In this document: positions 19,041-51,941 of the stretch, piece after piece
Numbering within the stretch: position 1 is the first letter of the stretch
Layout: every line of letters begins with the position of its first letter
From: Sarea resinae
Taxonomy: Eukaryota
Assembly: GCA_026026165.1 (NCBI GenBank)
Contig: JAPEUD010000023.1
Coordinates: 186,001-250,000, forward strand
Length of the DNA stretch: 64,000 nt
Reading direction: 5' to 3'
The notes under the pieces: model-generated
The model's database searches: none
What the model was told of the DNA's origin: nothing
What the model saw: only the letters and a program-made list of their open reading frames with translations
Program-made: the position numbers and the translations under genes

Positions 19041-21279
19041 CTTGGTAGTAGGTCAGGGCTAGAGGAAGTAGGGTACCTGAAGTAGGAGGTAAGCTACCTT
19101 GGGAGGCAAAGGTAGAGTAAGGGACGCGGTACGGTAAAGGTAAGGTAAGGTAAGGTGAGTACCTCAGGGCTATCCATCAGCCTAAGGTACCTGACCTTAC
19201 CCACCAGTAGTCATGCACTGTGACATCGAGGGCTTGTCGGGTCCTCGGTCCTAGTGCCTCTAGTCCCCTTAGGTAGGTAGAGTACTGCAGTACTACAGTA
19301 CCCCTTAACTCTAGGATGTCAGGAACTTCGAGGCCTTTTTCAGTCGGGTTTGACGCTGTTTTTAGCGGCCAATGTCCTGTGGTAGTAACCAAATACTTAA
19401 GTAGTTTGTACCTAGTGACTTATTGTCCTTACCCTATACATATACTCACCCGCTGTTTTCTTGTTATCTGTCTCTCACTACTTAGATGCATAGGTCTAGC
19501 AGCAACAGAAAATAGAGACCTCTTATTACAACAGTCTCTTAGAACTGCCTATATAATCTAAAGGCAAAACTTAAGAAGATAAGTCAAGAAACTTTAAGAT
19601 AGCTATTAAGCGTTATAGTAGTAAGCAATAATACACACTTAAGCACTTAAGCTAAGAGCACTATTTGTACTACTATAAACAAGTTAAGAATAAGACTATA
19701 AAGAAATTGCACTTGCTTTTAACTAACAATTATATTTGTGCGCTAAAGCAGAAATAAACAAGGTAAGCTATTTCTTTTAATCTATATACATAATTAATAA
19801 AAGTTATAAATACTGCAAATTTATAAGATTTAACTAGCTTAACTATCTTATATATACTTATAAAGAGGATTTTATAATCTTCTTAGAATAAGACCTTAAT
19901 ATATATACACACTTAAGGAAAAAAAGCACTTTATACTTAGACTAGAAACTACTAAGTATATTATACTACAAATGCACTAGTTACAGAATTAATAAAATAA
20001 TTATAAAAGCTATCTTAAATATATACTTAGGCTATCTACTTAGGTTTAGGTACTTAGCCTAAATTAAGGTTTAAGTAAGTTAGCCTGCCTAATTATATAA
20101 TTAGGTTAGGTTTAGGTAGGCTTAATTAGCTGTAGAGCCTATAGCCTACCTATTAGGTATATACAAGTTGATTAATAAGATAAGAAGTAGATTAATAAGA
20201 TAAGATTATTAAAAGGTAATATATAGAGGTAATATCTAGAGAGTAAATGCAATAAAACTATAGGAATTATAGAATAAGAATTATAGTATAATAATACACT
20301 CTATATATTTAGTTTATAGTGTCCTACATAATCTACACTATATAAAAACCACTAAATCATTCTCTAAACCTTTATAATATAGTATGTTTTACTAGAACTA
20401 ATTCTACTCTAATAAAGATAAATATATGCTGTAGCATATACAAAGCAAACTACTATAAGTGTAACTATTCACACAATTAAGAAAGAAATAGACTAGTTCT
20501 AAAAGAGAGCCTCTATACCTTTAACCTAACAAATAAATTATCTATAGTTAAACGCAGGCGCTTTCTTTAAGACAATATAGATTAAGCGTTGTTATACCTA
20601 GAGTGTTAAAGCAAAGACTGCTGCTATAAAGCAGGTTTATCTAGCTGCACTATAGATAGAGGTAGAAGTAGTAAAGAGTGCTTATTATTAGAAAACCTAT
20701 ATAGGTCTGTGTTATCCTATATTGTAGGCCTACTATTAACTAAGGTTAGCTTATTATTATTACTAATAACAAGTAAATAATTATTAAATTCAGCTAATAG
20801 CGTGTGTAGAGTGTTATAGTAGGCCTAGGTACCTATAGGTAACCTAATTAGGCTGTAGGTATACCTACCTGCTTATATAATTAGGCGGGCCTATAGGTAG
20901 GCTTAATTAGTAGTAGGACCTATTACTTACCTAGTAGGTTATAGCAAGTTAATCTAATAAGATAATAGGTAAATCTAATAAGATAACAGAATATTCAATT
21001 AATAAGCTAATAGAATAATACATATCCTTTAGATAGTAAAGGTAGGTAATATATTAAGGTAATATTTTATAGAGAGAAAGTGAAATATTATGTACTTAAG
21101 TATTAATTTACATGTGATCTAGAAGACTAAGATAGAACTAATTGCAATAAGCTTTTTCGCTTTGCTCTTACTCTTTTAAACAAATTATTAATAGCTAGCC
21201 TCTTCTATCTTATTTGTTAGCTTAAGTTAGATGCGTTTAACAGTGAATTAGAGTAGGAAGGTATAGTTTAAGAGATAAT

Positions 21280-23930
21280 AGAGAGAGAGAGAGGTAAAGT
21301 TTACTTATCTCTTAAAAAGCTATATAAGTCATTAGATTCTATTCTCTAATTACTAAGATCTTACTCTTTAGTGTCACTAATAGTTAAAGAAGAGTCTTTA
21401 AGATTAATAAGCATTGTATAATTAACCTTATTAGTGCTCTTAAGAGCATTATTAGAGACTGTATTGCAACCCTTAGCACTAAGCTAATAACAATTAAAAT
21501 GCTTCACTATTATAACGTTCTAAATAGTTTCTACAACTAAATAGTTCCTCTAAAATATAATTAGATCTTATGCCTTATTAAAGGTCTGTTCTACTCTAAC
21601 AACAGCACTTAGAATTGCTAGAATGTCTTTTACTATTTGTTATAAGCACAGTTAATAGTAGGATCGCTAAAACTATTACTTATTAGTATTGTATATAATA
21701 AGTAGAACATATTACTAAAAAGTGTTACCTAGAGTAGATCTTTATAATCTAAGGAAAGAGATCTTAAGTATTAACTAATAGAGTCTTTTATTATTAGATT
21801 CTAGTTCTAAAGAACTTTAGCCCTTACTAGATCATTAATATTAAGAATAGATAAGGTAGCTTAAGCTGCAGTTAAAGTAACTACCTCCTTTGTCTTATAG
21901 TTTTACTAGTAGTAGTCTTTAAACTCCTACTAATATTGTTAAAGATAAGACGTCCTCTAATTATCTGACTAAATTATATAGGTTAGAATATCTCTAGAAT
22001 TGTACTAAAGACAGGCTGCAACTTACTTTATAGAGGTTAAGCTGTGTAGCAGGGTCTAGAATACATGCTATATTAAAGATAGTTCTATATAGTCCTTTAG
22101 TATTCTAATAGTATTGCAAGAGCTTAGCTTTTACAGCTTAAATAGTAGAAGTAAGCTCTTTTTTCTAGGGAATCTGTTTTAGCTAAAGCTTTTAAAAATG
22201 TAGCTTAAGATGCTTAAAGAGCTGCAAATAGATAAACTATGTCTTATAGATAGTAACACCTTTTGTATAAGAAACAGCGCGAGTCTAGTTATTAAATAGT
22301 TTTAGTAGGATAAGTAGGTAGCGCACTTAATCCTAACCTGTAGCTAATACCCTAGCATAGCAGATTGTACTTTTATATTTGTTAATAAGGAACGTCTAAA
22401 TAGAGTCCTTTAGTCTCTAGGCACGCGCTAGCATGTTATAAGTTAAGTTCTATTAAGTCTTTACATCTTAGATTATGTTTATAGGATTAGCCTAATGCTC
22501 TTAAAAGCGTGTAGATCGCTATAAGAATGCTGCTATATAAACAGCAATAGTCTAGATCTAGAAACATTAGTAGTTATATATAAAGAGATATAACGCACAA
22601 ACCTTTTAAAGTGTGCTGTTAAATAAATCTTTAAGAGAGAGGCTAGTTAGTGCCTTATAATCTTTATTAGACTAGGTGTCTTAGATTAACTTATTAGATA
22701 CAGTGATTTTTAATGCTTTATTAAAAGCAACTACTGCAAGCTGTATAACATAGGCTATACATAGCATATAAGCGACATTATAATTCTAGAATATTTAGTG
22801 TCTTATCTCTAAGAGTATAGCAAGTTCCTTCCTTATAGTGTTGTTATTACTAGTATTATCTGTTGTAATTGCAAGCACTTAGTCCTATATAAAATGTTAC
22901 CTAAAGGTGTTACTAAATGTAAACAGACTTACCTAGATATTAAAGCACTTTAATCGCTTAAGTAGAAGCTTAGCTATGTTTTTCCTAGTGTGCTTACTAC
23001 TAAGGCGCTTAAAGCTAAGTAAAACCTCTTAATAGGTCTAGTCCTTATTAATAAAGTATCCTATAATTAAAAGGAATAATATCCTATTTAGGCTCTGCTA
23101 AGTATTAAAGGCAATAGAGATCTTTGTTTTTAGCTCTAGCTTTTCTAGAATTAGAGGCACAATCTCTATATAGCGATTGTATATCTTGTTATGTATCTAT
23201 TGCTGACTAGGTATCTTAAGGTCTAGCCGACAAATTTTAAAGGACTGCTAAAGCTAATAATTCTTAACAATCCTCTATAGTAGATTTACAGAGATAATTA
23301 TCTTTAGCAAGATACTCTTCTATCTGTTAGTTAAGAAAGGCTCGCTTACTAAGGCAGAGTTTTATAGTTGTGTAGTTCTCTAGAGATAAATTAATATAAA
23401 TGTTACTAGAATGTGTTACTAGAGGAACTCACCTTAGCCTATAGTAAATCAAGCCTTTACAACAAATTTAATAGAGTAACTTTCTAACAATTAACAGATC
23501 TATAGTGCCTTTTTATAGCAGATATACCTAGGCCTTTTACACTTAGATAGCTAAGTCGCTTAGTATAGCTCTTACATACAATTCCTAGTAGGCTAGACTT
23601 AATATCTGCGACCTATAAGAAGTAGGACTATGCTTTACTAGTCTAAGTCTTAGAGCTCTACTAAGGGTTTCTACAGTTCTTAGTTCTTCTATAATCTGTG
23701 GTTTTCTACTAAGAATTAAAGTTATTCTTATAGAAACTTTGCTAGATAATGCAGTGGTTTAAAGAGTTGTGTTAAAGAGAGGAAAGAGGTTGTTAGGTTA
23801 GGTATAAGATAGTTGTAGTAGAGTTAGAGTTAGAGAATGTAGAGAGTTTAGTGCTAGTAAACGACTTATTACAATTAGAAGAAATATCTGTAGAGATAGT
23901 AAGGATTTTAAAGGACCTTAAGTTTAACAT
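21280..23930 (-). pseudogene. hAT transposase of element B (RIP-inactivated, with introns)
   Basis: Back-read motifs ISIAF(D)T(W)QS, AITTDN(A)SNN, C(M)A(H)VIQLAV, II(Q)DVKT(RW)N(S)TY and the dimerization motif DILAI(P)SAVV(G)VE.TF. Confidence 0.88.
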
Positions 23931-24199
23931 GCTAAAGTGAAATAAGGTGCAGATTAGAACGTACAATCACTAAAAAAACCCTTAACATTGTTTAACTAGG
24001 AGTATATATATTGTTTTAAATCTATACACTAGAAAAAACCTAAGGGCAGAGAGGAATAAAGTAGATAGGTAAAAAAACAAGAAATTGTAAAGCGAGATTT
24101 AAAGGAATAGATTTGCATTTTAATCTCCTAATGTTACTAATTTATGTTACTAAGCATTCCTTAGAAAATAACTAGTATATAGGCTAAACTAAAACTATA

Positions 24200-26350
24200 A
24201 CTATAGCTAAGCACTATTTAGCTTAGAGCTTGCACTCTCTTTCTTTACTATAGCTAGAAGACCTATCTCTAGCAACATTTATAGTATCTCTCTCTACTAT
24301 ATTGCTAGGATGCTCTAGAGCTACTGCATCCTATTCCTTTATACTCTTCTAGCTAGCTAAATTAAGAGAGGAATGCTCTAGGACTACTACCTCTTATTCT
24401 CTAGTGCTATCCTAGCTAGTTAGGTTAAGAGAGAAATGCTTAAGAATAGTTGCCTCTTATTCTCTAGTGCCTTTCTAAGTAGTTGAATTTAGAGAATTAA
24501 TCTCTACCTTCTCTTTAATATCCTTAAGCTCTTTTTAGTCTTTAGTAGTCTCTTTAATAAAGTTAATATTAGATTAAAAGGCTGTATTATCTTCTTTATT
24601 ATTAGAAATAACTACTTTAGTTTCCTCTATACTAATTGCAGCAAACTTATCCTCTTTATCTATGTCTATAAAATTAGAGAGTGTATTAGGATTGTCTATA
24701 TTTAAGAGAAATTCTATTATAGTTGCTGTTAGATTATTATCACTAGCAGCGATAAGGTTATTATAGCTATACTTATAGATATCTTATTTATAGCGTCTAA
24801 TAACCTTCTTTAATCGCTATCTAATGCGCTTACCCTAAGCTTTAAAAGATAGATCTAGTGAATTAGGCTTTTCTATATCTATAGGCTATAAACTTAGTTA
24901 GATCCTCTCTTTAATAATATAATATTACTAAAGAGTGTTACCTCTTCTTTAGTACCTTTCTTATCCTTCTTATTCTTTTCTAGTAAAAGAAGATTTACTA
25001 CATTAGTAATTATCTCTTTGTTCTTATTTGTATGTCTAGCTAATCTCTTTAAAGATAAGTTCTAGCGTGACTCAATCTATTTAGCTAACTAATAGTTAAA
25101 GAATCGACGTTCTATTAGCTTTGCTAATTTTAGTTCTATAATTTGCTTGTTAAAGGCTATATAAGTAGTAGAGTTAAGGCTTTTATAGCTAGATTCTTTG
25201 TGTAGCTTGTAGTAGAGCTTTGATTTTGCTACACAGTTAGCAGCATCTGCGCGCTTTACCTCTAACTTATAGGTATTGTTATTTAGAGCTAGAGCTGCTC
25301 TTTCTAACTTAGTTGCCTTGTCTTTAGCTTTCTTAAGCTATACTTTAGCTACCTTTTATTTAACACTATAAGGAATAACTCCTAGCTAAAGTTTAGGTGC
25401 AGTATAAGTGTAAGGAGATTTCTTAAGCCTTATAACAATGCTTAAGATCTAGGTATTACACTTAGCAGCTCTCTTAATAGTTGTATCTGCAGCTAATAAT
25501 CTAAGGACCTTATAACAGTGTAGTAGGATATCTTCTTCTTTAGATGCATTACTAGAGCTGCTGTATATAGTTAGTAAGTATCTAGAATAATAATGTTACT
25601 AAAATGTGTTACCTTTCCTAATTCTAAGGTATCTTTATAAGAGCCTTACAGCAGCGACTAAGAGTGATTTCTTTAAGTTTAGGAACCTTATAGCAGGTAG
25701 GAGTAGCGTTTCTAGTCTTAACAGCCTTGTAGTAGCAGCTAGAAGAGATTTCTTTAACAAGCAAATCACTAGAGCTAAATAAAGTAGTTAGCAAGTATCT
25801 AGAATTATAATGTTACTAAAAGGTGTTACCTTTCTTTACTCTAAGATTGTTAAGTAATAACTAGGCTGCTATTTGTCAGAGTATTCTAATTAGCAGATGC
25901 GTTACTAGAGCTTTAATCTAGTTAATAGGTATTTAAGACTATAAAGTTACTAAATTGTGTTACCTTTGCTCTTCTTTAGGCTGCTCTTTTAATAGAGGTG
26001 TAATCTCTTAGTATCTAGAAGAGTTAGAATTATCACTGCTATTAGAGCTTAACTTGCTATTATCTGCTCTAGTGACACTAGATTTATAGTCCTTAGAAGG
26101 ATTTATCTTATCTAGCTTTTATTGTTTGCTTTAAAGTAATAAGTTAGTTATTAGAATACTAAAATACTACTAGAAGGTGTTACCTTATTATATTAGGTAT
26201 TAGGCTAAGTTCTTTAAAGCCTTTCTTTAGTATTTTTATTGAAATATTTAATAGTTCTAGCTAGCTTCTCTTACCTCTTATTCCTATTACCTTCTCTACT
26301 CTCTTTATTAGAGGCTGTATTATAGGGCAAATCTATCTTAATATTAGAGT
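24200..26350 (-). pseudogene. Unknown multi-intron accessory ORF of hAT B
   Basis: Short GT..AG introns; peptides AKLIERRFFNY and A(W)GKRIR.RLK match those of the equivalent region in element A. Confidence 0.55.
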
Positions 26351-26372
26351 AAGATTTAGCTATAGTAGCAAG

Positions 26373-26510
26373 GTAAAAGGTCTTAATACTAATAAAAAGG
26401 TCTTAATATTAATAAAAAGGTCTTAAAACTAATAAAAAGGTCTTAAAACTAATAAAAAGGTTCTGAATAAGATAAAAGAGTCTTAGAAGTAATAAAAGAG
26501 TCTTAAAGTT
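26373..26510. repeat. 20-bp tandem repeat (TAATAAAAAGGTCTTAAAAC-like, about 6 copies)
   Basis: Direct reading; lies between the accessory ORF and the H3-like gene. Confidence 0.85.
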
Positions 26511-27645
26511 AATAATTAGGCTCTTAAAGCAGATAAGATAGTCCTAGCAATAATAGAAGTGCTTAAGAAGTAATAGAAACACTTAAAAATTAATAAAATA
26601 GGTTGATAACTAATAGAATTCCTTTAAAGTTAATAAAAAGCTAGGTTAGTAATAGTATATAGGTAGTTAGGTGCTGCTTCCTATCCTATTACTATAATAT
26701 ACAGCTTTATATTCACTGAAAAAGGTATGTACTTTCTTATTAACTAATCTTATTAACACCTTATATTTACCTTAACTAGTATATACTAACTGCATTAAAT
26801 GTGCCTAACTATAGAGTATATAGATTTCTACTACTTAGTTGCTTCTAACTTCCTACATCTTACAACTTAGTGTATATTAATGCTAATAAGGTGTAGCATT
26901 AAATTCTATTAGTTTTTAATAACTTTTTATTAATCCTTTGCTTATACTATCTAATTACTACTCTTATAGTAGTCTCTAGTGATTTGCAGACTCTCTACAC
27001 AACTTTTTAAAGTGAGGTAAGTTAAAGAAAACATTTTAATATATTCTCTATAGTAGCATAGATAGCTAATAGCCTTAGACAAAGAAAGAGGTTTATAAGA
27101 TACTACTCTCTTATTAAACTTAAAGTATATTAAGACAGACTCTACTACCTAGTAACACCTTTAGGTAACATTTGCTTTTAGAATGCCTTAAGCTTAGACT
27201 ATATTAGTAGCAGCCCTATTTTTTACTTTATACTCTAACATCTATTAGCATGCCTAAGACAGGTTAAAAAACAGCTTGTAAGACTATACCTACTTCTAAA
27301 ACTAGTTGCAAATCCACTAGCAAAAAGCTTATTGCAGCGCAAAGGAAAGTTATTACTAGTAGTAGTAATTAGGCTTGTAAGAACATTATAAGGCTAGGTT
27401 CTTATAAGAAGGCTAGTAGTAAGCGCTTTAACACTAGCACTTTTACCTATTGTATAGCAGAGTATAATAAAGCTATAACTATATAGAATAAAGAGAAGGC
27501 TAATACTACTATATATAGAGCAAATTTCACTAAGGTAAAGCTAGTCTATCTATTCTAAGCTAAGCCTAGCAGTAAGTCTCTCTATCTACTAGTAACACTT
27601 TAAGGTAATATTTTTAAAGCTAAAGCTTTATTAGAGATTTAGCGT

Positions 27646-28049
27646 TGTAGAGGAACAAAATAGACGCACTAAATCAGTGCTAAAGCAGAACACCTAGATA
27701 GTCCTAATAACTCCTTATGTAGTCGACAAGATAGCTATAACAACTACTTAACAACCTACTACTAAGGTATAATCAGTGGAATAGCACAAAGCAGAGGGAT
27801 TAGAAGGTGACTGCTCCTCTAGGAAGGAAGTAGTAGGAGAACTCTTAATTAATTGATTTAACTGAATAATAAAGAACTGCCCTGCGCTTAAAAGCTGCCT
27901 GAAAAACTAAACATAACTAAACTAACAAACTTCTCTAAATTTTGTTCCTTACCCCTTAACGTAACACTATCCTCCTTAAACTACATGCCCTAAGAACAAT
28001 GCACGTGATTTGCTGACTAATCCTAACCGAACTATTCTGACCTATAATA
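27646..28049 (-). repeat. 3' LTR
   Basis: Colinear with 39100-39503; followed on + by TCCTTCCCCTC (28050-28060), a polypurine tract on the minus strand. Confidence 0.95.
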
Positions 28050-28080
28050 TCCTTCCCCTCTACAAAGTGAAAGTTGCCTC

Positions 28081-31000
28081 TTAACTTTCACTACTATTGT
28101 TATTGTCTTTGTTAGAGTGTGCAGCTCTTATTCTAGAGGATTGTCTAACACGCTTTAGATTAGGTGAGTCGCCTAAGTCTGACCTAGCTTGTTTATTTCT
28201 GTTTTTGCCTAGTTCTTCTTCTGATTCTTTATCTGATTCCTTTTCTAATAGCGTAGCTACAGCAGACTGTTAGAGAGCAACGTCTAGTTCTATTTCCTTA
28301 GCGCCTCTTGTTATCTGTTAAATAGTCTTGTTATAGACATCTTTTTCTGCAAGAGGTAGTGCAGAGGAAGTTTTAGAGATTTCTACTAGTTGTAGTGTGA
28401 TGCGACGCAGAACTAAACTACTAAACTAAGGAGGACTAGTTATTATAGCGAACAAAGCAGGATAAACAGTTAGTGATGTAATCTTAGTTAGAGAGAGAGC
28501 TGTAGTTAGTTCTGCTAATTGCTGCTAAGCATTCCTAGCTTTGCAAATAGCTTGCGCAACTGTCTTAAACAGGGTCTGCTTTGTTGACAGAGATTTAGAG
28601 AGTAGGCAGAATAGCGATTTCATGACTAGAGTAGTAGGGAAACTCCTAGACAGTCTAGCTGTTTCTTTAGCAGGTTTATCGCTGTTGTACTTAAAGTCAG
28701 ATAGCTTAGGGTCCTTATTATTGCTAATAACAATCACGTTATAGTCCTAGGCCTAAAAGAACGATTTCTGACTGTAGATGCATCGCTTCTCTTTCTTAAC
28801 TAAGGCCTAGTTCTTCTTAATTATCTTTATAGCCGTTTCGCGCTAGTCTTTAACAAACTCTCTTAGCTTTTACACCTTGCTCTTTAAGACAATATCTTGC
28901 TCTTTAACAACTGCTAGGTTATCCTATTAGCGTCGTCCTACTAGTGCGTCTAATAAGGCGCTAAGTCCTATTATTGCTACACTAGCTAGGAACTTATACA
29001 GAATTAACCTATAAGTGTTTAGATTTCTTAATAGTGAACTAGGCCCTAGTACTATATCTCTGTGTGCAATTACTAGATTATTCTAGCTGCCTGATTCTAG
29101 TATCTCTAGTGTATTATAATCTTGTTTAACTTTAACAAGCTAAGAGAAGATTACTCGCCAAACTTTTGTCGGATTTAGGGCTAGCCTATAAGGAATTGTA
29201 GGCATAGTGATCCTAACTCTATATTTCAAACAAGGCTGTCTTTGCACCTTTAGTCCTAGTTTAATCTTGTCAGCCTTTGTCTATAGTTTTATGTCTATGT
29301 CTTAGATTTTTCTAGCTTGCTAGTATCGCTTTAGCTCTTAGACAGCAATCTCTTTTACCTAATCTCTAATTTTAGCATGCATACCTAATAGAAGTCGCAC
29401 GCAATTGTTATTATCTTCTTTATCTATAGAGACAGCTACTTGCACTATGTTAGCACTGTAGTTTTCCTTAACAATCTGTCTAATGTTCTAATCTAAGTGG
29501 AAAAACATAATCTAGTTGTTTAGGTAGGCGTGACAAGCGTAATACAGGTAGGAGACAAGGCTTATAGTATAATCAGGCCTGTGCAATACTGTGATTGTGT
29601 AAACTATAGGATCCTGCCTAATAACTTGTTGTACAATCGAATGCATTATAGCTTAGTTCTAACCTATATCGCTAGCCCTGTTCACAGATCGCTAATAATG
29701 CTAATAGAGGTCGAATTTGTCGTCTACTATATGCCCTATTCTAGCCTTCTTAAACTAGGCTATGACATTAGGAATTATCACTAAACTATCCTTATTCTAC
29801 TTAGAGTGCATGTTAGCTATAAGTTGGCTCTAAATTCCTTGCAGACTAGAGACGTAATTCTAGCTCTCTTGTTCTAGTTTTAGATAATAAAGGCCTCTCG
29901 CGTCGCTTTCTTATTTTAGTTAGTGATCCTTTAGAAACTAGTAGTAAGTTTCTCGCTAAACTTTTAGCCTAATTAGGTCTCTAGTTGTCTAGATAGTCAA
30001 CAATCTCTCTATTAGCTCTTTGTCTTATCTTAACGTCTGTAGACTAAACTTTCTAGCTAGTGCATGTAGATAGTTCTAGCACAGTGTTGCATTCTTTTCT
30101 TTTATCTATATAGCCTATTAATCGACATATCCTATTGCTGTAGTTGTAGACACCTCTTTTTTGCTAGTTATGTTAGTCTTAAACTCAGTGGTTATAATCT
30201 TTAAGCATTAACAATCTTTTAGAACTTCTTATTTCTTATCTAGTGTTTCTATGTCCTTAGACTTCTAGACTGTCCTAGTGTTTAGCGTGTCTTTTTCTAG
30301 CAGATCTGCTTTATAATTAGATTTATAGTCGTCTGCAACTTCTAGACTGTCCTAATGTTCTGTAGTATCTGCTAGCTTAATTTCCTAGGTCAAAAATATT
30401 TGTCTTCTGTTATACCCTAGTTCTGCTTTTCAAAGGATGCTATAGCTGTTAATATAACTATTGAATTTAGCGAGTTCTGCGTCAGTGATGTCTATAACTG
30501 TTAGAGTCTGATTTTTAGCCTTTACAGCTGTAGCTACAGCTGTCTAGTCAGCGGATATTTGTCCTACAACTATTAGATTAGCGCTACAGCCCTTTCCCTT
30601 CTGTAGTCTTATAATAGCTGTAGAGTTTACTATCTTTATGCTTTCCTTAAAGGAATGCTTTAACGCAACAGCTTTTATAGCGTCTAGAACGTTCTAGGCT
30701 ATTTTGTCTAGGGGTAGTAGCTTTGCTAAATCTTTAAGTCCCTATTCCTTTTGTATAACTACTCTAGCCTTAGCTATTCTCTTGTGTGCAGTCCTGCCTG
30801 TGGCTGCCACACATTAAAACTCTTGTATAGAAGCGTCTTTGCTATTTAGTAGCGTAATAAGAGCTAGGTACTGCTGAATTCTATCCTCTGCTAGTGTAAA
30901 CAGGTAGGCAAACTCTATAATCTTGCTGCTTATTTCCTCGACAAATCTTAAGAACCACTCCTTTTGCAGTTCTATATCTAGGGTCCTAATGTATAATAAA

Positions 31001-38760: not shown

Positions 38761-39099
38761 GTTCAGCTTCTTGTTTAGTTATAGAGTTAAGTTCTACAAT
38801 AAGTCTAGGTTGTTGTGTAACTATTAGACTGTCTAGAAGTTCGCTAAGAGCGCAATCTCTAATCTAAATCTAAAGCACTCCTTCTCTAATTTACAGGGTC
38901 TCTAGCAGCCCTGTCTAAATAGCTTTAACTAATCTGATCTGTTTAGCAGTTAATAGTATTAATATCCTGTCTTCCTTACTAATATATCACTCTTTCTAAT
39001 TCAACGTGCTGTTTCAATCTATATTGTTATGCGCTTAGTAGCATTGCACTTAACTGCAAATCAAGTGGTTGCAGGTTTAAGCCCTATGTAGGTCACTAA

Positions 39100-39503: not shown

Positions 39504-40259
39504 GTGTATCTAAAAGAATGTAGATCTTCTGCTTATAAAGCTGCCTTTCTAGCGTCTTATAAGAGAGATTGCTTAAGATATCTAAAATACTAATAACACT
39601 CTTTACTTCTAATCCTTTACTATTAGTGCCCTTTAAGAAGCTGCTAAAGCTTACCTTATAGGCCTTTTTAAAAGTAAGTACAGCTCTTATTATTACCTTT
39701 CTATACTAACTCTAAAAGATATTTAGTATACTGCTATCTACTATAACTAGGTTACTATTAGCAGTAAAGACATGCAATTTATTAAGTCTCTTATAAAGAG
39801 ATAGAACCTTCTTATTAGCGATAACTAGTTAATACTAGCTTCTATACTATATAGGCTTTTCCTTTTAGATTTAGGTTTAGGGTCTAGGTTTAGGCTTACT
39901 AGGCATTCTTTAAGGGGTGCACTAATTAATCTTAGCTTTTACAATAACAATAAAGCTATATATCTAATAAGTAACACCTTTTAGCACTATTTACACTGTG
40001 CTCTTAATTTAGTGCTCTTTTATAGTAACACCTTTAGGTAATATAAACCTTCTCTTTAACACTTTAGCAACTATATACTACAGCATAGAATAATTACTAT
40101 TTTAGTATCTTATAAGTTATATAGTAGGTAACCTAACCTAACCTAGGTATACCTACTAGGCAGGTTCATTAGGTTATAGGTACCTAATACCTACTAGTAG
40201 GTAGGTAGAGAGTGCTTAACCTGCCTATAACCTAGCCTAGTTAACAGCCTAAGCGTGTG

Positions 40260-42745
40260 TTAATAATTAGTGTCCTTAGAAATACTATTAGATTTATCTT
40301 TACCTATATAGAAGCAGAGTTTATCGCAATTAAAGTGCTTTACAACTATAGTGTTCTAAACTGTTTCTACTAAAAGGCGACTTTAATAAAAGGTAATAAG
40401 GTCTTATACCTTATTAAAAGTCTGTTTAACACTAATAGCAGCTTTAGGTATAGTAAGAATGTCTTTTGCTATTTGTTTAAGCAAGAGCTAGTAGTGTGAT
40501 CGCTAGAACTAGTAGAATATCAGCACCTATATATAGAAATATTACTTAAAAGTGTTACCTACAAAGGATCCTTATAATCTATAGCTAGCAAAGATAGATA
40601 CTAACTAACTAGATCTATAATAGAGCGATGTTGTTTCTAAAGCGTCTTAGCCTATACAAGTGAATTAATATCTAATGCTAATATAAAGAGTGTAGCAATA
40701 TCTAAAGAGGCAACTTTAGTTCTTATATAATGCAACTAATAATAGTCCTTAAATTCGCGCTAGTACTTTTATAAATATTTATAGCCCTAGTTATTAGACT
40801 TCTTAGCTATTAGCAAAACATTCCTAGAGGATAAGGTAAAGGTAATAGATTTAGATAATATACTTTATATAGATTAAGCCTTATTAAAGGATTAAAGATA
40901 CATGCTAAATTAAACATTCTCTCTTATACTCTTTTAGTATCTTAGTAGTACTTAAAGAGCTTAGTCTTTGCTGCTTCTATAGCAGAAGTAAGCTCTTGTT
41001 TCTAAGGTGTCTGCTTAGGCTATATCTTGTTTAGATGCTTCTCTAAGTGCTTAAAAATCTAAGAGTATATAAACTAGGTCTTATAGATAGTTACGCCTTT
41101 AGTCTAAGACACAGCTCTTATCTAATTATTAAATAGCTTTAGTAAGACAATTAGATAGCAAATATAGTCCTAACTAGTAAGAGAGACATAAGTTCTACGT
41201 ATAGTAGGACTAGTTTTACTAATAAGAAATATCTAAAGAGTATCTTATAGCTGCTAGGCTTGCTTTAGCATATTATATATTAAGTTCTATTAAGTTTTAA
41301 CATCTTAGATTATATTAACTAGCGTTAGCTGCAGATTATAAAAGCGCGTAGTTTGCTATAATAAAGTAGCAATATAGATAGCAAGTGTATAAATCTAGAA
41401 ACTTTAGAGGTAGTAATAGATAAGGGTTGTTAGCACTTACCTTTTACAACGTGCTGCTAAAAGAGTCTTTAGAAAGAAGCTGCTAAAGCAGCTCTTAGTT
41501 TGTATCTAACTATGTATCTTATATAGACTTGTTTAAAGCAGTAATTTTTAGGCACTTATTAAAAGCCATAACTGTAAGCTAAATGATATACATAAGGCAA
41601 GGTATATAAGTAACCTTATAATCCTATACAATCTAATAGTGATTAGCAAGTAGACTTATTAGCTCTTAACGCATTATGTTGTTATTACTTGCGTTATCTG
41701 TTATCACAACTAGTATACAATCCTACAATGTAATGTTACCTAAAAGCATTACTATAAACATTAAAGACAAACCTAAATGTTAGAACACTAAAGTCAATTA
41801 AGTAGTAACATAGCTATGTTACAACTAGAGTGCTCTTTAGTTATCTTTTTAAACTCTAAGAGGACTTCCTAGTAATTCTAGTCTTTGTCAATAAAATACC
41901 CTATTATAGAAAGAAAGGATATCTTATTTAGACTCTACTATATATCTAGTGCGATAGAAATTTTAGTTTCTAGGCCTAGTCTCTGTAGAATCCTTAGTAA
42001 GATCTTTGTATATTGATTATAAATGTTATTATAAACCTATTATCGCCTTAGAATTCAAAGGCCTAGCTAGTAAAGGAGGAAGCATTGTTTAAACTAGTAG
42101 TTTTCTATAATCTGCTATAGAAGATTTGCTAATAGAATTATCTTAAGGAAGAGGTGTTACTAGCTTAACTAAGAGAATAGCTCTAAGGTTTAGAGAGTCT
42201 TTAGTGCTAAAGTATGTTGCTAGCATTAAGGATAGAGGTATTAGTTAAAAGATCTATTATATATAGCAATATCTTACTATAGTCTAAAGAGCCTTAAGTG
42301 TGTGTATTGTGCCTGCTATAAGAGACTAAGCACACTCTAGAGAGCTATAGTGCTGTTTTATTGCAGAAGTGCCTATCTCTTTAAGACTAGGATGCTCTTG
42401 CTAACGTCTGCATTATTAATACATTACTCTTAGGCAGCTAGTTATAACATTAGCAACTTAGTAGAAGAGAGACTAGGTTGTGCTTTTCTACGTCCTAGAA
42501 TCCTATTAAGGGCTTCTATATTAACCTATATCTGTATAAGCAGTCTGCTACTACTAGAAGATAAAAGTATTATAATATAATTGCTGCTAGATAACTATTC
42601 GCTATGTAGGATCTCTTTGTAACACCTCTAGAACATAGTAAATTAAAGCTAAAGTAATAGTTGTAGGTTTAGACTTAATAGCTATAGACCTTTATATACT
42701 ATCTCTAAGTTCCTTATAGTCTAATGTTTCAAACGAATTAGACAT
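40260..42745 (-). pseudogene. hAT transposase of element A (its C-terminal tail continues at ~20500-20798)
   Basis: ISIALDI(W).S, VITDNASNN, CL.(H)II.LTV, DVKT(RW)N and KDIL.IP.AA..V..TF; introns at the same positions as in the B transposase. Confidence 0.85.
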
Positions 42746-43049
42746 TGTAAAGGAGAAATTTACAGCGATAAGAAAGTGTAGAAGGCCTTAGAATGTATAG
42801 CAGAGTGAAGAGGTAGAAAGTGCCTTTAACTAGAGAAGTATTTGCTTAAATATTAATATTAAAGGTTGCTAGGTTTAGCATAACTAAATAAACACAGCAG
42901 AGAGACTATAAAGAGAGTAATATAATACAGCTATCTACTAGAGTTATTAGGAGAGAGTTTATACAGCTAAAATTTAATTAAGAGAATATGCATTCCTAAC
43001 GTGATTAATATACACAATGTTACTAGTAAGTGTTACTTTTTTAGTAAAC

Positions 43050-45050
43050 TAAATTCTAGAGAAAAAGTGAAAATCTACCCCTAGGCAGACACAGACTAAT
43101 AAAGAAAAGCCACTTAGCTATAACTACCTCTCTACTTATTGCTATCCTTAGCAGCACTAGAACTAGAGTCCTTCTCTTTAGCATTATTAGTAGAGTTATT
43201 CTTACTCTCCTTTGTATTAATAGGAATATTCTTAGCTATTGTTAGCAGAGCCTTCTCTATAGCAGATCTAGTAATAGCAGGGTCCTCTCTTTTAAGAATG
43301 TCCTCTAGCTAAGTTTTCTCTCCTATAGTTAGCAGTATAAAGTCTTCCTTATCACTTAAGATTAGGTTAATATCCTTATTAGATAATAGAAACACTTCTG
43401 CTTCTAAATTGCTAAACCTAGTAAAATTAGTCCTAGCCTCTGTGTCACTATTAGAGAGAGTTGTATAGTCTTTAACCTGCTCTATAAACTCTAATATTAC
43501 CTCCTTTAGATTAAGATCACTAGCTTCTACTAGATTATTATAGCTATAGCAGTAGATATCTCTCTTATAGTAGCAGACTACTTTTAGCAAGCGACTTCTA
43601 ATGCGTTTGCCCTATACTCTAAATAACAAGTTAGGCTTATTTAAATTTTATCTCTGCTAAACTAATTAGACAAATGCTGTAAAGAAACGTTACTTAAAAG
43701 TGTTACCTTAGGATTAGCACTACTATTAGGTTAGCTATCTCTATTGTCTTTAAGTAGTAAGATATTAACAATATCCTTAACTATCTGCTTATTATCCTTA
43801 GCCTTTGCTTTCTCTACCTTAATAGCCTTTTACTGCTATATAGTAACCTACTTAGTAGACTAGTAGAGGAAAAAGCGTTGTTCTATTAATTTGTCTATTT
43901 TAGAGTCTATAACAGTCTCTTTAAAGTCTTATTGTTATGCTGTTATTATACTAGCGTAATTATTCTTGCGATAGAGTTTACCTCTTAGAGTAGATTTTGC
44001 TTTCCTATCTGCTCTATCTGCTTTTTTTAGTGTCTTCTTAAACTTAGTATTGCTAAGTTTACTATCTAGCTCTAACTCTAATGCTTTAGACTTTGCTTCC
44101 TTAAGCTGCGCTCTAGCAATCTGTTGTTATTTGCTGTAGAGAACTATCCTAAGCCTTATCTTACTAGTATAATGTCTTTATAGGCAGGCTTTCACACGTT
44201 CTACTAGGCTAGCTATCTCTAGGTTAAATATTCTCTTAGGATAAGAGGATGTTATAAGGGTTGCACTATAAGTTGCACTAATATTAGTTACTAGCAAACA
44301 ATGTTACCTAAATGTATTACCTTAGATATCTCTTTCTAAGAGCAAGAGAGTCTAAGCTCTCTAGCTTATTATTAAGGTTAGTCTCTTTCTACTTCTATCT
44401 CTTAGATATAGTCCTATTATATTATTAGCTTTATATTTAGAATTGTTACTAGGATGTGTTACTACTTCTGCTTCTTATATACCTTTCTTACTTTGTCTAA
44501 GAACTTTGCTTTTCTAACCTTATCTAAGAACTTTACCTTTATCTTTTTAACTATAAAGACTATCTTAACTTTATCGCTGCTACTATTACTAGAGTAGCAC
44601 TACTAGCAGATATTTACAGATATTGTTACCTAAATGCGTTACCTAGCCTTACTATCTATCTTCTTATTACTACTTCCTTTCTAACTGCTGCTACTATATA
44701 GAGAATTACTTATAGCCCTATTATTAAGATCTATAGGCAGTTAATTATTGTCTTTATATTCTTCTATCTCTAGATTTAGCTTAGTTATGCTAGATTTTGC
44801 TTTCTTAAGCTTTTATTGTTTCTTACACTAATATAAGCCTTCTATAGTATTATTATTACCTTAATATATTACCCTTAGACCTAAGCTGCTAGTAGGCTAT
44901 AGTTTTTAAGAAGAAGTTAGTTTCACCTTACTCTATCTCACTTAGAAGTTTAAAACTTACCTCTTCTTTATAATACTAGTATTCTCTATAGCTGCCTTAT
45001 TCTAAAAGAAGCTTATAGGTGATATAAGTAATTTAGAGAGTAATTAGCCA
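43050..45050 (-). pseudogene. Unknown multi-intron accessory ORF of hAT A
   Basis: DKLIEQRFFLY and V(W)GKRIRSRLLK, similar to the B accessory ORF; several short introns. Confidence 0.55.
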
Positions 45051-45249
45051 CCTATCTTATGACTTTCTACTGCCTAAACAGTTAAGAAAGTTAATAGGAT
45101 TAATAAAATTAATAAAATCTTAATGATATTAATAATAGAAGTAATAGAGTTGATAAAAAATAGCACTTCTCTTTATATAGAAGAAAGTTGCTAATAATAT
45201 AGGTAGTAAGGTTGAATTATATAGTAGAACTAGGCATATAAGATTTAAG

Positions 45250-45400
45250 CAGAAGGTATATACCTTATTAAACAGTTAATAACATTTACTGCAAGGTACA
45301 TACCTTATTAATTAGTTAATAACATTTACTACAAGGTACATACCTTATTAACTAGCTAATAACACTAACTAAGGTATATACCTTGCAGTAAATGTTTACC
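45250..45400. repeat. About 41-bp tandem repeat (AAGGTA(C/T)ATACCTTATTAA...) in the divergent intergenic region
   Basis: Direct reading, 3-4 copies. Confidence 0.8.
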
Positions 45401-45850
45401 TTAATATTATATAGGTCTACTACTTAATTTAACCTTACTACCTACATTATTAGCAACCTTCTCCTATAGCAAGAGGATTGCTCTCTCTTATTAACTTTGT
45501 TACTTCTGTTATTAAACTAATAAGACTTAATAAACTTTATCACTTCTATTATTAGTATTATTAAGATTTCTCTCTTAGTGCTCTTTAAGTTTTAAGGTTA
45601 AGGTGAGTTTAAGAACTACTACTTAATAGTAACACATTTAGGTAACATTTAAGACTATAAAGGCACTTAGCTAATAATTCCTAACTACAGACAACTCTCT
45701 AGATTCTTTCTTTAATACTAACTAAAGATTCTCTTTTAGCACTCTCTACACTACACTCTTACTCTCTTAACATAATTATAGTCACTAATACATTAAGTTA
45801 TTCTTTCCTACCTCTACTAGTAACACTTAATAGTAACATTTTACTAGACA

Positions 45851-46600
45851 ATAGCTTGTACTAAGCGTACCGCCTGTAAGACTGTCTCTAGTACTAGTAG
45901 AAAAGGAAAAGGAAAAGGTAAGAGAATATCTGCTGCTAAGGCTTATTATATTACTAGTAGCAAATCCCTATGTAAGAACTTAGCTAGTATAGCAGCATAT
46001 AAAGGTTGTCTTGCTACTAGACAACGCTTTACTACTAGTATATATGCTAAACGCTAAAAGGCCTATAAAGATGCTATAAAAGCATAGGTTTATAAGGATA
46101 CTACCTTTTATAGTTGTAGTAAGGTTTATAGTGTGCCTAAACTAATCTAACTCTATTGCACTTATCTAGGTAGTAAGTCTTAGTCTCTAAACTCTAAGAG
46201 TAACACATTATAGTAACATTTAAACACTATAGCATCTGCACTCTATAAAATTAAGAGATTGTAAAAATCTATTAATTTAGTCATTCTAAAGCTCTCTTTC
46301 TAGCGCCTAGTCTGCAAGGTTATATCTTATTACTACTACCTCTCTAGAGAGCTCTATTTTTAGTTATTAGCTATATATGCCTTGTAAGAAGCTACTAAGG
46401 CTTTTATAGTTAGGTTCTTTAAAAGTGAGTTTTTCTATCTCTTCTTCTATCCTATACTTAATTTTTCTAGATGTGCTTTAGGCCTGTATTTATTAGAACT
46501 ATATAACTATTAATTATAAAGACACTTAGTTTATTAAGGCTTTAATAAAGGGCTTTAGTATCTAGATCTCTAGTAACATATAGGTTAAGTTTCTATAGCA
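45851..46600 (+). pseudogene. Histone H3-like gene of hAT A
   Basis: (M)A(R)TKRTA(R)KT...T(GG)KS(PR)KNLAS.AA(R)K; ASAL(RE)IKRL(Q)KS..LVI(P)KL.F(Q)RLV(RE)V; AL(Q)EA.(E)AF.V.FF(E); two short introns. Confidence 0.88.
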
Positions 46601-48423
46601 TTAGCTCTAAGGTTTTACTAGTTCTAGTAGCGCAATTAGAGATGCAATTAGAGATGCAGTTAGAGATGCAATTAGGGCTTTTCTAGTCTTCTAGTCACAG
46701 GTTATAGGAAGTTATAAGAGGCTTATAGTTTTTCTCTGCCTTTTAGCATTTTTAGTCTTTACTTTACTTAGTCTACAATAAAGACTTAATAGACTTAGTA
46801 ATATATATAGGTAATATTTGTAGAGTAATAGCAGCTTTTTAATGCTCTATAAAACATGCCCTACAATCTATACTATTTTAGCTACTATCTTTATATCATG
46901 TGATAGGTACCTACACCTACCTACTAGGTCTTATTAGGCAGGTTAATTAGGGTATAGGTACTTAATACCTATACCTAGGCAGGTTCTTCTACCCTTACCC
47001 GCCTAGTAGGTACCTAAGTAGACACTCTAAGCTTATTATCTATAACAAAACCTAAGTCTTTTTCTTCTAGGTAGCTCTTTAATTTATCTAATAAGAGTAT
47101 AATCTCTAGTTGTTTATTAGAGTCTATAATAGTGTTAGTATTAGTGTCTTTAGTCTAAGACAGTGTCTTAGGATTGTTAGCGTTGCAAAGGAAATTTTCT
47201 ATTAATTTAAGTAGATTAGAGTCGCTAGCTTTAACTAGATCATTGTATCTAAAGTAGTAGATTTCCTATTTATTGCAACAAACTACACAACTTAATTATT
47301 GCTTAATATCTTTTTTTATAGAAGCTAGGCCTTTCTAGTAATTAATAACAATTAAGTCGTTCTATATCTAAGTTAGCATGCAAAATAAGGATCTGCATTG
47401 TTACTAAAATGTGTTACCTTATCTTCTTTACTTTCTTAAGTGTCTTTATTTAATACATCTACTTACTCTTTATCTTAGGATTCTTAACTAACTAGTCTTT
47501 AAGCCCTTAACTCTTGCTTTGCCTTTGCTTTCTCTTCTAACTTAGCTTTATTCTTCTTATACTCTCTCTTCTGCACAGCCTCTTTATTGTAAGCAAGCTT
47601 CTTAAAGTATTTAGCAGACTTTCTACTTGTAAATTGCTTTTTTATTAAATGTATTAGTGCTAGCTTAATTACCTTGTCATTAAACTATGCTTTCTCTTCT
47701 GTAGTTATATTATAAGACTTTATATCTTTCTTTAGTTTTGCTTAAAGCTTTAACTTAGCTGACTAGTTAGCTCTATCTTTTTTAGTGTATATAGATTGCT
47801 AGTTTTCTTTGTTATTCACTTTAGTTTTAGCTTTTTTATTAGACTAGAGCTTATAATACATAGTGTTAGTCGCTCTAATAACTTCTAAACTGCTATAATT
47901 TAGTATAGAACGTTACTACAATGTGTTACTTACTTGCTTAAGACTAATAATTGTTTGTCCTTAGACCTTAACTGCTTATCTAATGCTATAAATATATTGA
48001 CCCTATAAGATATAAGTACTTCGCTAGAATAAGTGTAGTATTAAGTACTAACACTAAGATTTTAGAACTTGCTTTAAAGCTTAAGATATTGCTTAAGTTA
48101 CTAGACTTCTCTTTAGCTTTAATATTCTAGTATTTAGCTGCTAGTAAAGTCTTAGTCGCTTTAGAAATAGTGTCTAGAACTAGACTTTACTATCTTTTAA
48201 CTCGCTTTATTAAATGTGCTATACTAGTAAAGTTAGTCTTAGGCGCTAATTAAAGTGATATTACTAATAAGTGTTACTTTGCTTAGCTTATACACTTAAG
48301 TAGAGTTAGAGAGCGTAGACTAGTTATCTTCTTAGCTTCTTACTTTATAGATTAAAGTAAAGCTTACTGCTTGTTATAAGTTCTGTCTATCTTAAGATAC
48401 AAGCTAGTTACAGCTAGATAATT

Positions 48424-48645
48424 AAAAGTTAAAGTGTTAGTTGCATTTATATCTTTATCTGTAACTTAGTATATTAACTTATAATTCTTATTAGAATAAA
48501 GACTAATTTAGTATATAAGTATAAAGATAAAGAAGTAGCTAAAGAGTTAGAAGTTAAAAGTGTTAGTTGCATTTATATCTTTATTTGTAACTTAGTATAT
48601 TAACTTATAATTCTTATTAGAACAAAGACTAATTAAGTATATAAG
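48424..48645. repeat. Two-copy tandem duplication of about 127 bp
   Basis: AAGTT(A)AAAGTGTTAGTTGCATTTATATC... at ~48426 and ~48552. Confidence 0.85.
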
Positions 48646-49256
48646 TAAGTAAAGAAGAAGAAGAAAAAAAAGCTATAGTAAGAAGCAGCAGATAAGTATA
48701 TACTCTACTATACTAGTTTGCGCTAGCACTTGTAATGCTCTATTAATTAGTTTATTAATAAGTTATAAATAGCTTCTAGCAGCTAGTTCTATCTACATGC
48801 GTAAGAAGTTATATAGTTAACTTCTGCACTTACTAACAGCTTCTTTTCTTCTATACTTCTTTATTACACTAACTACTTAGCTAGTTTTAGTAAGTAAGAG
48901 TATATTAAGCAATATTTGTTAAATACAAGCATTAATAAGACTTACTAACTATACTAAACGTTTATAGGCTAGAGCGACTTCACTTTCTTCTTTAAATGTA
49001 AGTTCTCTCTAGTTTAAATTAAGCTTAAAGCAATAGAGTCACTAACTAAAGTAACAGTCTGTTTATTAAATTATCTATGTTAAAGTAAGTTAAGTGCTTT
49101 AAACTACAAGTAACACATTTAAGTAATGTATTGCTTAGATATCTAACCTGCTAGACTCTTCTTAATTCACTCTATATATATAGCGAATTAAGTTCACTAT
49201 ATTAAGACAGCTATCCTTAGCTTCTTACTAAGTATATATAGAGAACAATAATAAGA

Positions 49257-50086
49257 ATGCTCTCTCTTTACCTAACTACACTAGCTCTAAAGAAGTTAAA
49301 GAAGAACCTAATAGGTTAGTGTATCTTACTTTACTGCTGCACTTATATATTGCTTACTAAATTATCTAGCAGTAATAGTAGTAGAGAGAAGACTTAAAGC
49401 GCATGCACTTGCCTATAGACTGCTTGTAAAAGTCTAATTTAAACAGCCTGTAAGTCTACTAGTAGTAAGGTCCTTTATAAGAATCTACGCTCTAAAGCTG
49501 CTTGCACTAATAAAGCGTGTATATATAAAGTAGAAAGAGCTAGCTTTTTTTAATGTATAGCTAAGTATTGTACCTTAATTGCTGCCTAGAAGTAAGAGAA
49601 GACTATAGCAAAGCGAAATAAACAAGCCTTCTATAAAAGCAGACCACTCTAGCTGCGCTATAGGACTAGACTAAAAAGTGAGTAATACTTTACTCTTATA
49701 GTAACACATTTTAGTAACGCTTAGTAGTTGCTGCGCTTAAAGAGATCTATTGCTACTAGAAGAGAGCTAAATTATTGCTTTGCAAACTGCTTTTCTAGAG
49801 GATTGTTTATAAGATAGTATACAACTTTAGCTTAATTAAAGACGTGCGTTTTTAGGCAGCTGCTCTATATGCTGTGTAAGAAGCTGCTAAAGTGTTCTTA
49901 GTTAGTTTTTTTACAAGTAAGTTTGTAAAAATCAGCGCGCTTTAGTACTACTAACATATAGATAGACTTAAACTTAGCTGCAATCTATGCAAAGCGTATT
50001 ACTATCTAGGTAAAAGACTTGCAATTAATTACTAACTTTATAAAGCAGTTTAAATTAAGCTTTAGTTATAAGAGCAAGAAGAAGTA
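49257..50086 (+). pseudogene. Histone H3-like gene of unit C
   Basis: (Q)TA(R)KST(GG)KV(PR)KNLRSKAA(R); AALKEI..Y(Q)K..LLL(R)KL(P)F(Q)RIV; DVRF(Q)AAAL.AV(Q)EAA; LNLAAI(H)AKRITI(Q)VKDLQL. Start position approximate. Confidence 0.9.
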
Positions 50087-50659
50087 ACTAATTTAAGTAA
50101 CGTTTCTTTGTGTTAGTAGATTGTAGTACTATTTAAATAGCAAGGTAGCTAAATTAAATTTAATTACTTTTAATATTATGTAATGCTCTTATTATTCTCT
50201 ATATCTTTGTGTTACAATACAAAGATTATCTAAGATAAGATTAAAATGCAAGCCTGCTTAGTAATACATGCTATTAATAGTAAAATAGTTACATGTTATA
50301 GTAAAATAGTTATATATTAGGTAACCTAACCTAACTTGCTAGGTTTACTAGGCAGGCTGCTCCTAGCTATAGGTACCTATTACCTAGCGTTAAGTAGGTC
50401 TAGTCTTAGCAACCTGCTCTATAGGTACTTAACTTAACACTCTAACTCTATCTCTCTTCTCTTTCTTCTAGCTTTATAAAGAGAGATTTAATTAAAGTTG
50501 TGCTAAAAAAATTGTGTATATAATAAACTTAGTGATAATAATAAGTTAGTTGTTAAAGGCTAATATATGTATATATATAGTACGCTTAATATTCTTAATA
50601 GCCTAGCCTAACTCTCTCTCTTATCTCTAGGTTATCTATATATATATATATATATATAT

Positions 50660-51877: not shown

Positions 51878-51941
51878 AGTGGCTGCGAGGGGGCGGACGG
51901 GCAGCGGAGGGGGCAGGCGGACGCGCGGCGGAGGGAGAGCT

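Follow-up and report, generated by a model that had tools for sequence, protein, structure and literature searches.

In a 64,000-nucleotide stretch of the Sarea resinae contig JAPEUD010000023.1 (positions 186,001 to 250,000; hereafter the window), it was found that positions 20028-50444 form an AT-rich block mutated through repeat-induced point mutation (RIP). The block contains three copies of one family of hAT DNA transposons, here called A, B, and C, and each copy carries one histone H3-like gene (H3L). The copies were delimited by self-comparison of the window and by inspection of the element ends, and their features are collected in Table 1. The G+C content is about 52% up to approximately 19.4 kb of the window and 28-37% from approximately 20 to 64 kb, the exception being an island at 50.4-54 kb. 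TpA/ApT, a dinucleotide measure of RIP, is 1.7-2.2 in the elements versus 0.72 in the genic part of the window, and (CpA+TpG)/(ApC+GpT) is 0.43-0.84 versus 1.17. A host RhoGAP-like open reading frame (ORF) is assigned to Ascomycota and to no lower group. In every copy, H3L lies near the right end on the plus strand, inside the right terminal inverted repeat (TIR), which ends at 40251, 47029, and 50444, respectively. To the left of H3L, A and B have on the opposite strand an ORF (hereafter the central ORF) and then the transposase. A fourth H3-like sequence was searched for across the window, and none was found.

Copy A is nested inside the left subterminal region of copy B. A is flanked by a perfect 8-bp duplication of the target site (TSD), AGCGTGTG, at 20799-20806 and 40252-40259, and the target site at 20799-20806 is B's own sequence. 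The left part of B resembles the left end of A (19941-20326 aligns to 20732-21121), and right after the right TSD of A, position 40266 of B aligns to position 21430 in the interior of A. Since this alignment begins just past the TSD, 20028-20806 and the sequence from 40260 onward are one element. A long terminal repeat (LTR) retroelement of the Ty3/Gypsy type, whose minus strand encodes the Pfam domains RT_RNaseH, Integrase_H2C2, and rve, lies in turn within the H3L of A.

A preliminary description of this DNA, made from the letters alone, had located the three H3-like relics, the accessory ORF divergent from them, and, beyond it in A and B, a transposase to the left, and had assigned the units to hAT; all of this is borne out. 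The point at which it broke the relic of A, 27645/39508, is exactly the insertion site of the retroelement. It had named H3-like copies outside the TIR/TSD boundaries as an outcome that would refute it, and each of them is inside the right TIR, that of A within the TSD. Other details had to be revised. Position 20028, taken as the left end of A, is the left end of B, and the units drawn side by side are nested. The ATG at 49257 is not the start of the H3L of C, whose real N-terminus lies near 49401. As for the unit ends, the right ends of all three copies hold, while neither a matching TSD for B nor a left end for C was found.

The TIRs are of a short (T/C)AG(A/G)G type and are imperfect at positions 4-5. 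The subterminal regions (40100-40251, 46900-47029, and 50300-50444) contain many TAGGTA/CCTAA-type repeats, for example AACCTAACCTAACC.

Table 1. Positions of the three hAT copies, their genes, and the inserted retroelement in the window.
Feature	Position	Strand	Remarks
Copy A	20807-40251		~7.58 kb without the LTR insert; TIR pair and perfect 8-bp TSD
Left TIR of A	20807-20819	+	TAGAGTGTTATAG
Right TIR of A	40240-40251	+	ends ...AACAGCCTA at 40251
Copy B	20028-20806 plus 40260-47029		~7.55 kb; both inverted ends present
Left terminal part of B	20028-20806	+	TIR TAGGCTATCTACTTAGG from 20028; left end also given as TAGGCTATCTAC
Right TIR of B	47018-47029	+	...GTAGACACTCTA; right end also given as ...GACACTCTA
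Copy C	47030-50444	+	left part missing, begins within the central ORF; right TIR ...AACACTCTA ends at 50444
H3L of A, first part	27250-27645	+	exon 1 27250-27571 (107 codons + 1 nt); intron 1 27572-27619, 48 nt, GTAAGT...AG; first 26 nt of exon 2
H3L of A, second part	39508-39804	+	rest of exon 2 39508-39673; intron 2 39674-39718, 45 nt, GTAAGT...TACTAAC...AG; exon 3 39719-39804
H3L of B	45851-46565	+	exons 45851-46172, 46233-46424, 46471-46565; introns 46173-46232, 46425-46470
H3L of C	~49401-50087	+	exons ~49401-49677, 49725-49916, 49966-50087; introns 49678-49724, 49917-49965
Central ORF relic of A	24424-25457	-	exon X ~25337-24945, motif-bearing intron, exon Y 24879-24424
Central ORF relic of B	43216-44225	-	100-codon open stretch at 43312-43611
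Central ORF fragment of C	47313-47158	-	protein-level similarity
Spacer in A, exon X to H3L	25458-27249	.	more motif-bearing intron-like segments and a tandem array; start of the central gene uncertain
Transposase relic of A	21430-23700	-	48-nt in-frame intron at 22885-22932
Transposase relic of B	40260-42400	-	50-nt intron 41723-41772; tblastn with P0151
Ty3/Gypsy-type LTR retroelement	27646-39507	-	inserted in exon 2 of the H3L of A; span includes the duplicated target
LTRs of the retroelement	27646-28045 and 39100-39499		400 nt each; 95% identical

The genes of the three copies

PF00125 was scored on the translations of H3L exon 2 with X at the stops, the gathering score being 26.4 bits. 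A (39508-39672) scored 30.3-34 bits and C (49727-49915, in the correct frame) 29.2 bits, and B (46235-46423) scored 20.1-21.7 bits (E 2.6e-4), which is under the gathering score. In phmmer searches against PDB chains, A matches H3 residues 56 to ~109 (E 4e-11) and C matches H3 residues 46-104 (E 9e-9). Among the best 60 rows for each, all are H3 or H3 chimeras, and the best matches are H3.3 and H3.2, not CENP-A. A word-index protein search with exons 2-3 of the relics gave two candidates with common words and no match.

The gene structure is the same in all three copies. Two phase-1 introns are at identical positions, and exon 2 is 192 nt long in every copy, while exon 1 is 322 nt in A as in B. 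Intron 1 interrupts the codon matching H3 Thr45, directly ahead of VALREI, and intron 2 interrupts the codon matching Asp106; intron 2 starts with GTAAGT or GTGAGT and has a TACTAAC branch site in A and C. Without the two predicted introns, A, B, and C have coding sequences of 600, 609, and 591 nt, each a multiple of three. The sole disruptions are internal stops (13, 10, and 11), all 34 of which are TAA or TAG. The retroelement splits the H3L of A between the codons for EIRR and YQK, and excising it together with one target duplication restores the reading frame.

The extreme N-termini of the window H3Ls still resemble ARTK..TARK(S/T), the tails are ~70 residues longer than that of H3, and loop L1 exceeds that of H3 by 3 residues in A and in B and by 2 in C. 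Like CenH3/CENP-A/Cse4 and replacement H3 variants, H3L combines a histone fold whose loop L1 is lengthened with an N-terminal tail that is divergent and extended. Unlike CenH3, it keeps the H3-type ARTK..TARK start and sits inside a transposon beside an acidic ORF. The resemblance to CenH3 seems to be limited to the longer L1 loop.

The transposase relics belong to the hAT family. In a tblastn search with an intact protein, P0151, residues 100-495 align with A at 23310-22027 in one frame (30.5% identity over 436 columns). The intron of A is backed by its 48-nt in-frame insertion relative to P0151, and the frame shift by 2 between the high-scoring segment pairs of B with P0151 is due to the 50-nt intron. 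B has a BED-like N-terminus at 42397-42332, and A (21639-21493) and B (40481-40329) can both be aligned over the C-terminal dimerisation motif. When a profile built from the relics of A and B was run against 1.84 billion representative proteins, 996 matches were obtained at E<=1e-3; the best of these, P0001 (E 7e-44), itself carries PF05699 (E 3e-14). PF05699 was found in five of the eight top long matches that were scanned, and those relatives that carry a name are 'HAT C-terminal dimerisation domain' proteins from Penicillium and others. A word-index protein search with the transposase core relic gave no match. RIP stops abound in the reading frames, and there are no intact catalytic residues and no working transposase. 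The copies are dead, which bears on their activity, not on their family membership.

The central ORF is kept at the protein level between A, B, and partly C (98, 83, and 44 bits). A Pfam scan of the relics and of the intact copies described below gave no family for it, and the best score in a protein-atlas search, 0.85, was under the usable level.

Divergence of the copies and their intact relatives

The three copies are not RIP variants of one sequence. The H3L exons are ~53-64% identical in nucleotides between copies, and transversions exceed transitions in all nine exon-by-exon comparisons. RIP does not produce transversions. Thus, the copies had diverged well before RIP, and the statement in the preliminary description that they differ beyond RIP transitions holds, as does its statement that the histone fold and the intron placement were kept. 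The transversions also bear on past constraint, as they peak at third codon positions. For the transposase, they number 93/62/147 at codon positions 1/2/3 (p=1e-8). In the H3L fold region, the numbers are 19/11/36 for A-B, 22/13/37 for A-C, and 28/12/32 for B-C, in alignments guided by the protein alignment, which favors a third-position excess. In an ungapped comparison of H3L exon 2, A-B has 16/8/25 (p=0.012). The central ORF gives a weak signal in the same test (p=0.03 for exon X and p=0.16 for exon Y).

Do intact relatives of these dead copies exist? I scanned metagenomes with P0151 aligned to eight named hAT transposases of fungi, and 80 loci were returned; an earlier scan with P0151 alone had matched 52 patterns, of which no locus was confirmed. 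Local tblastn revealed an H3-like gene beside the hAT transposase in eight of the 80 loci (L024, L030, L032, L051, L060, L061, L067, and L073). At least 1.8 kb upstream of the transposase is available in 15 loci, seven of which have an H3L, and most contigs are too short to show the neighborhood. PF00125 was over the gathering score in five of the six exon-2 pieces scanned. A homologue of the central ORF was found by tblastn in seven loci (L027, L030, L032, L051, L060, L061, and L067), and L024 has at the same place an unaligned acidic ORF with a similar motif. The genes of L067, L060, L030, L051, and L061 are arranged as H3L(-), central ORF(+), and transposase(+), mirroring the window. The pair of H3L and central ORF is placed otherwise relative to the transposase in L032 and L073, and it is still divergent in L032. 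Both contig ends of L067 are CGAGCC-type subterminal repeats, with all three genes between them. Clean TIR pairs were sought in six metagenome contigs and none was found, the L067 contig stopping within the subterminal repeats; thus, a TSD proof that H3L is inside the metagenomic elements was not obtainable.

The intact central proteins have 180-230 residues, with a conserved N-terminal part followed by an acidic tract. Their pI is 4.6-5.7, and the most acidic 60 residues hold 21-31 Asp/Glu. In the intact H3Ls, loop L1 is longer than that of H3 by 2 to 10 residues. Several of them are without canonical tail motifs, and the tails are highly variable between lineages. The conserved part of H3L is the helices of the histone fold, not the tail alone. 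Both genes are under purifying selection: by the Nei-Gojobori method (custom script), dN/dS (the nonsynonymous to synonymous rate ratio) for the single close pair L030 and L051 is 0.18 in H3L exon 2 (69 codons) and 0.21 in the central ORF (192 codons), with 0.12 in the N-terminal part of the latter, remoter pairs being saturated at synonymous sites. The preliminary description had named neutral evolution and independent recent captures of host H3 in intact relatives as an outcome that would speak against its reading, and this pair evolves under constraint.

In a rough FastTree phylogeny of the transposases, built from query-anchored fragments with RIP-laden branches and with support values not inspected, six of the seven H3L loci placed and L027 form one clade. 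Intron 1 is present in the window copies, L024, and the L060 group, and is absent in L067 and L073. Intron 2 is followed by the AIH codons after 14 nt in the window copies and L024, and after 10 nt in L030, L060, L067, and L073; the two positions agree with the two transposase clades.

Two additional features of the intact H3Ls were seen. In L073 (2374-2480, minus strand), the open frame past the H3-like fold enters a stretch closely like the canonical H3 N-terminal tail (..SARKSTGGKSP..KLLAKAARR). Another H3-like gene, in tandem with the first, may begin here, as reported for the two-copy elements of Mycosphaerellaceae. In L060 (245-673), L030 (362-649), and L061 (525-803), all on the minus strand, H3L exon 3 runs ~70-120 residues beyond the fold as a charged C-terminus, which is missing from canonical H3.

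It was also revealed that the elements share a 20-nt motif, GTAACACNTTTWRGTAACAT (GTAACAC-N-TTT-W-R-GTAACAT), with 27 sites in the window versus 0.21 expected. All 27 are within the hAT units (21046-49720), and none is in genic DNA, the retroelement, or other AT-rich DNA. The local gene strand carries 25 of them, and the two exceptions are 2-mismatch matches. Most sites either are inside short introns after GTAAGT or GTGAGT or make up the 5′ end of a segment that resembles an intron (AG|GTAACA...), with a downstream CTAAC branch site and AG. The motif is present in introns and in segments resembling untranslated regions of all three genes, and its core is common to H3L intron 1 (A, B, and C) and the transposase intron (A and B). 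The metagenomic lineages have their own versions: TGTAAC(G/A)CCCAAAT in L067, CATTGTAACGTGAAA in L030 and L051, and ATGTGACGGGAAAA in L061. The GTAAC/GTGAC motifs of the relatives are often inverted pairs, in introns, spacers, and 3′ flanks. For example, the transposase intron of L067 starts with GTATGTAACGCCCC and has an inverted copy 20 nt on, and one pair surrounds the 5′ splice site region of this intron. The GTAAC motifs may be protein-binding DNA sites or RNA hairpins controlling splicing.

Published elements and the role of H3L

Elements of this type have been described before. According to Manning 2013 (PMC3538342), Pyrenophora tritici-repentis has a 5.6-kb hAT element with the same three-gene layout. 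Its H3L has insertions in the N-terminal tail and in variable fold regions and is neither canonical H3 nor CenH3; copies of ~5.6 kb and a 2.3-kb deletion form are near-identical, unmutated, and expressed. The layout is like that of the window, with a transposase, a central ORF, and H3L between TIRs, whereas the window copies are ~7.5 kb long, ~60% identical to each other, and killed by RIP. The 120 listed relatives of P0151 include no protein from Pyrenophora. The preliminary description had itself mentioned an association of H3 with hAT in this species; since the whole three-gene layout was already described there, the cassette is less new than it implied.

Dhillon 2019 (PMC6710886) reports that hAT elements in six Mycosphaerellaceae contain H3-like copies killed by RIP. 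It reads them as captures of an intronless H3 transcript, with the P. tritici-repentis event being independent. As in the window, an H3-like sequence inactivated by RIP lies there inside a hAT element with an 8-bp TSD, in AT-rich blocks only, the TIRs start with TAGA/TAGAG, and one consensus end has CCTAA-type subterminal repeats. In Additional file 2 of that paper, a run similar to AACCTAACCTAACC ends one Pseudocercospora consensus, just before '>Smu_cons'. None of six TIR 9-mers of the window occurs in the six consensus sequences of that file, and with the C. zeae-maydis consensus only the first five bases, TAGAG, are common; of six motif 8-mers, one occurs, once, in a file whose line breaks could hide matches. 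The accessible text describes one or two intronless retrocopies per 9.5-kb element and no central ORF, whereas the window has one H3L with two introns per 7.5-kb element. Introns with GTAAGT/GTGAGT ... AG signals are in all three window H3Ls, which are therefore not intronless retrocopies. I found no literature on H3L-carrying hAT elements later than Manning 2013 and Dhillon 2019.

The element type is thus already published, and the window by itself is another dead example. What is new is the comparison with the intact relatives, which supports the view that the histone and its acidic partner are a conserved, selected module. Since 2013 it has been asked why selfish DNA carries a core histone, and accidental capture is the answer given in print. 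Is H3L a captured fragment or a maintained gene? I consider it very probable that the window copies are an H3L-carrying hAT family in which the histone is maintained cargo. Intact relatives with the paired genes and a dN/dS of ~0.2 argue for maintained cargo rather than one-off captures, and the derived characters common to the window copies (the intron positions, the 192-nt exon 2, and the L1 insertion) support the same conclusion. H3L and the central ORF would then be functional genes of the transposon lineage rather than debris that it had captured. These lines of evidence support the proposal of the preliminary description, a stable three-gene cassette in which the histone is maintained as cargo.

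Several points weigh against this conclusion. The TSD proof comes from copy A alone: the flanking 8-mers of B disagree, TATATACT (20020-20027) versus AGCTTATT (47030-47037), and C has no left end. Direct Pfam matches of the transposase relics to PF05699 are weak (E 0.15 for A and 0.026 for B). The ungapped codon-position tests of H3L exon 2 are not significant for A-C and B-C (p=0.22), and the dN/dS values come from one close pair. Between the central ORF of the window and the intact central ORFs, there is one hhalign match (E 0.0025, probability 12%, 46 columns). In the transposase tree, the window copies, P0151, and L024 are in a sister clade with Penicillium-type hATs, several of which have no visible H3L, and the two positions of intron 2 are 4 nt apart, within the same five-codon linker. 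Since the H3L carriers are split across transposase clades, a single origin of the cargo is not demonstrated. The pattern of clades and introns fits co-divergence of H3L and transposase with some intron change, and it would also be compatible with more than one capture.

If H3L is maintained, what would it do? In the mechanism envisaged here, H3L would pair with the host H4, and the acidic central protein would escort H3L as a dedicated chaperone. H3L would form variant nucleosomes, helping the element to stay expressed or to escape silencing that depends on the H3 tail. I put this mechanism as a whole forward tentatively, as the most likely of those considered. A broader proposal, which I find rather doubtful, is that an entire clade of fungal hAT transposons has H3L and the acidic central protein as a two-gene module, ancestral and under selection, so that the P. 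tritici-repentis and Mycosphaerellaceae cases would be the same old lineage and not independent captures. If so, the transposon would encode both a histone variant and a chaperone for it, in a divergent arrangement like that of the host H3-H4 pair. The element could build its own chromatin or blunt H3-tail-based silencing, and the GTAAC motifs in introns and spacers could be an address or a splicing control. It can now be tested whether a transposon family makes its own nucleosome component with a chaperone, and what effect this has on silencing, RIP, and transposition. The intact relatives provide natural sequences for such tests, replacing reconstructions from RIP-damaged copies.

The cassette may be conserved for another reason, with H3L working outside nucleosomes, either as a tail decoy that titrates or inhibits the H3K9/K27 methyltransferases or readers of the host or as an architectural histone-fold protein of the transposition complex. 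The ARTK..TARK(S/T)-like extreme N-terminus kept in the window copies is in line with this idea. The rest of the tail varies strongly between lineages, which agrees more with an arms-race interface than with a structural role, and the element-specific GTAAC motifs are scattered over the entire element. However, the fold helices are conserved besides the tail, and the canonical tail motifs are gone from several intact H3Ls, so I regard a role outside nucleosomes as unlikely.

One-off or repeated transduplication, in which a host H3 gene or transcript was caught by accident and H3L is a non-functional passenger, is the reading published for Mycosphaerellaceae, with P. tritici-repentis treated as a separate event (PMC6710886). 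The occurrence of H3L carriers in more than one transposase clade agrees with it, as do the 4-nt shift of intron 2 between groups and the absence of intron 1 in L067 and L073. Several observations speak against it, however. The window copies are old subfamilies (~55-64% nucleotide identity), yet they have common intron positions, exon lengths, and the L1 insertion. H3L is paired divergently with the same acidic central ORF wherever the context is visible, a dN/dS of 0.18-0.21 speaks against passenger status, and the window H3L has introns, unlike a retrocopy. Accidental capture of this kind is thus quite improbable. The idea that these are ordinary host H3 pseudogenes or fragments adjoining transposons, to which only their occurrence in a repeat-rich block would point, can practically be dismissed, since the three copies are at homologous positions within TIRs, that of A is in a TSD-bounded unit, and the same arrangement is found in unrelated metagenome contigs.

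Insertion history and neighboring DNA

From the nesting, the order of events would be as follows. B inserted first, and A then inserted into the left subterminal region of B, duplicating 8 bp. The LTR retroelement afterwards inserted into exon 2 of the H3L of A, and RIP mutated all the elements. The two LTRs differ at 22 sites, 21 of which are transitions, indicating that RIP acted after the arrival of the retroelement. At 11.9 kb, the retroelement is long for the Ty3/Gypsy type and may contain further insertions.

The disagreement between the flanks of B was followed up. An insertion of B into C was considered and rejected, as the left flank (19450-20027) has no similarity above shuffles to the interior of A or B; against copy C, it scored 26, slightly over the shuffle maximum of 23. 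A stretch of 115 bp (47030-47144) separates the right end of B from the first alignable base of C. The mismatched flanks and this stretch suggest a rearrangement or deletion at the B/C junction.

To the right of the block (50445-64000), the region at 54-64 kb is a further AT-rich block of the RIP type, without H3-like sequence and without the GTAAC motif. The G+C-richer island at 50.4-54 kb has long GC/CA/CT microsatellite-like runs and holds an open frame of 319 codons (52292-53248, minus strand). Within A, the spacer between the central ORF and H3L includes a short tandem array (26336-26653) with a period of roughly 60 nt, which was recognized from internal self-matches and from repeated peptide strings in the translation.

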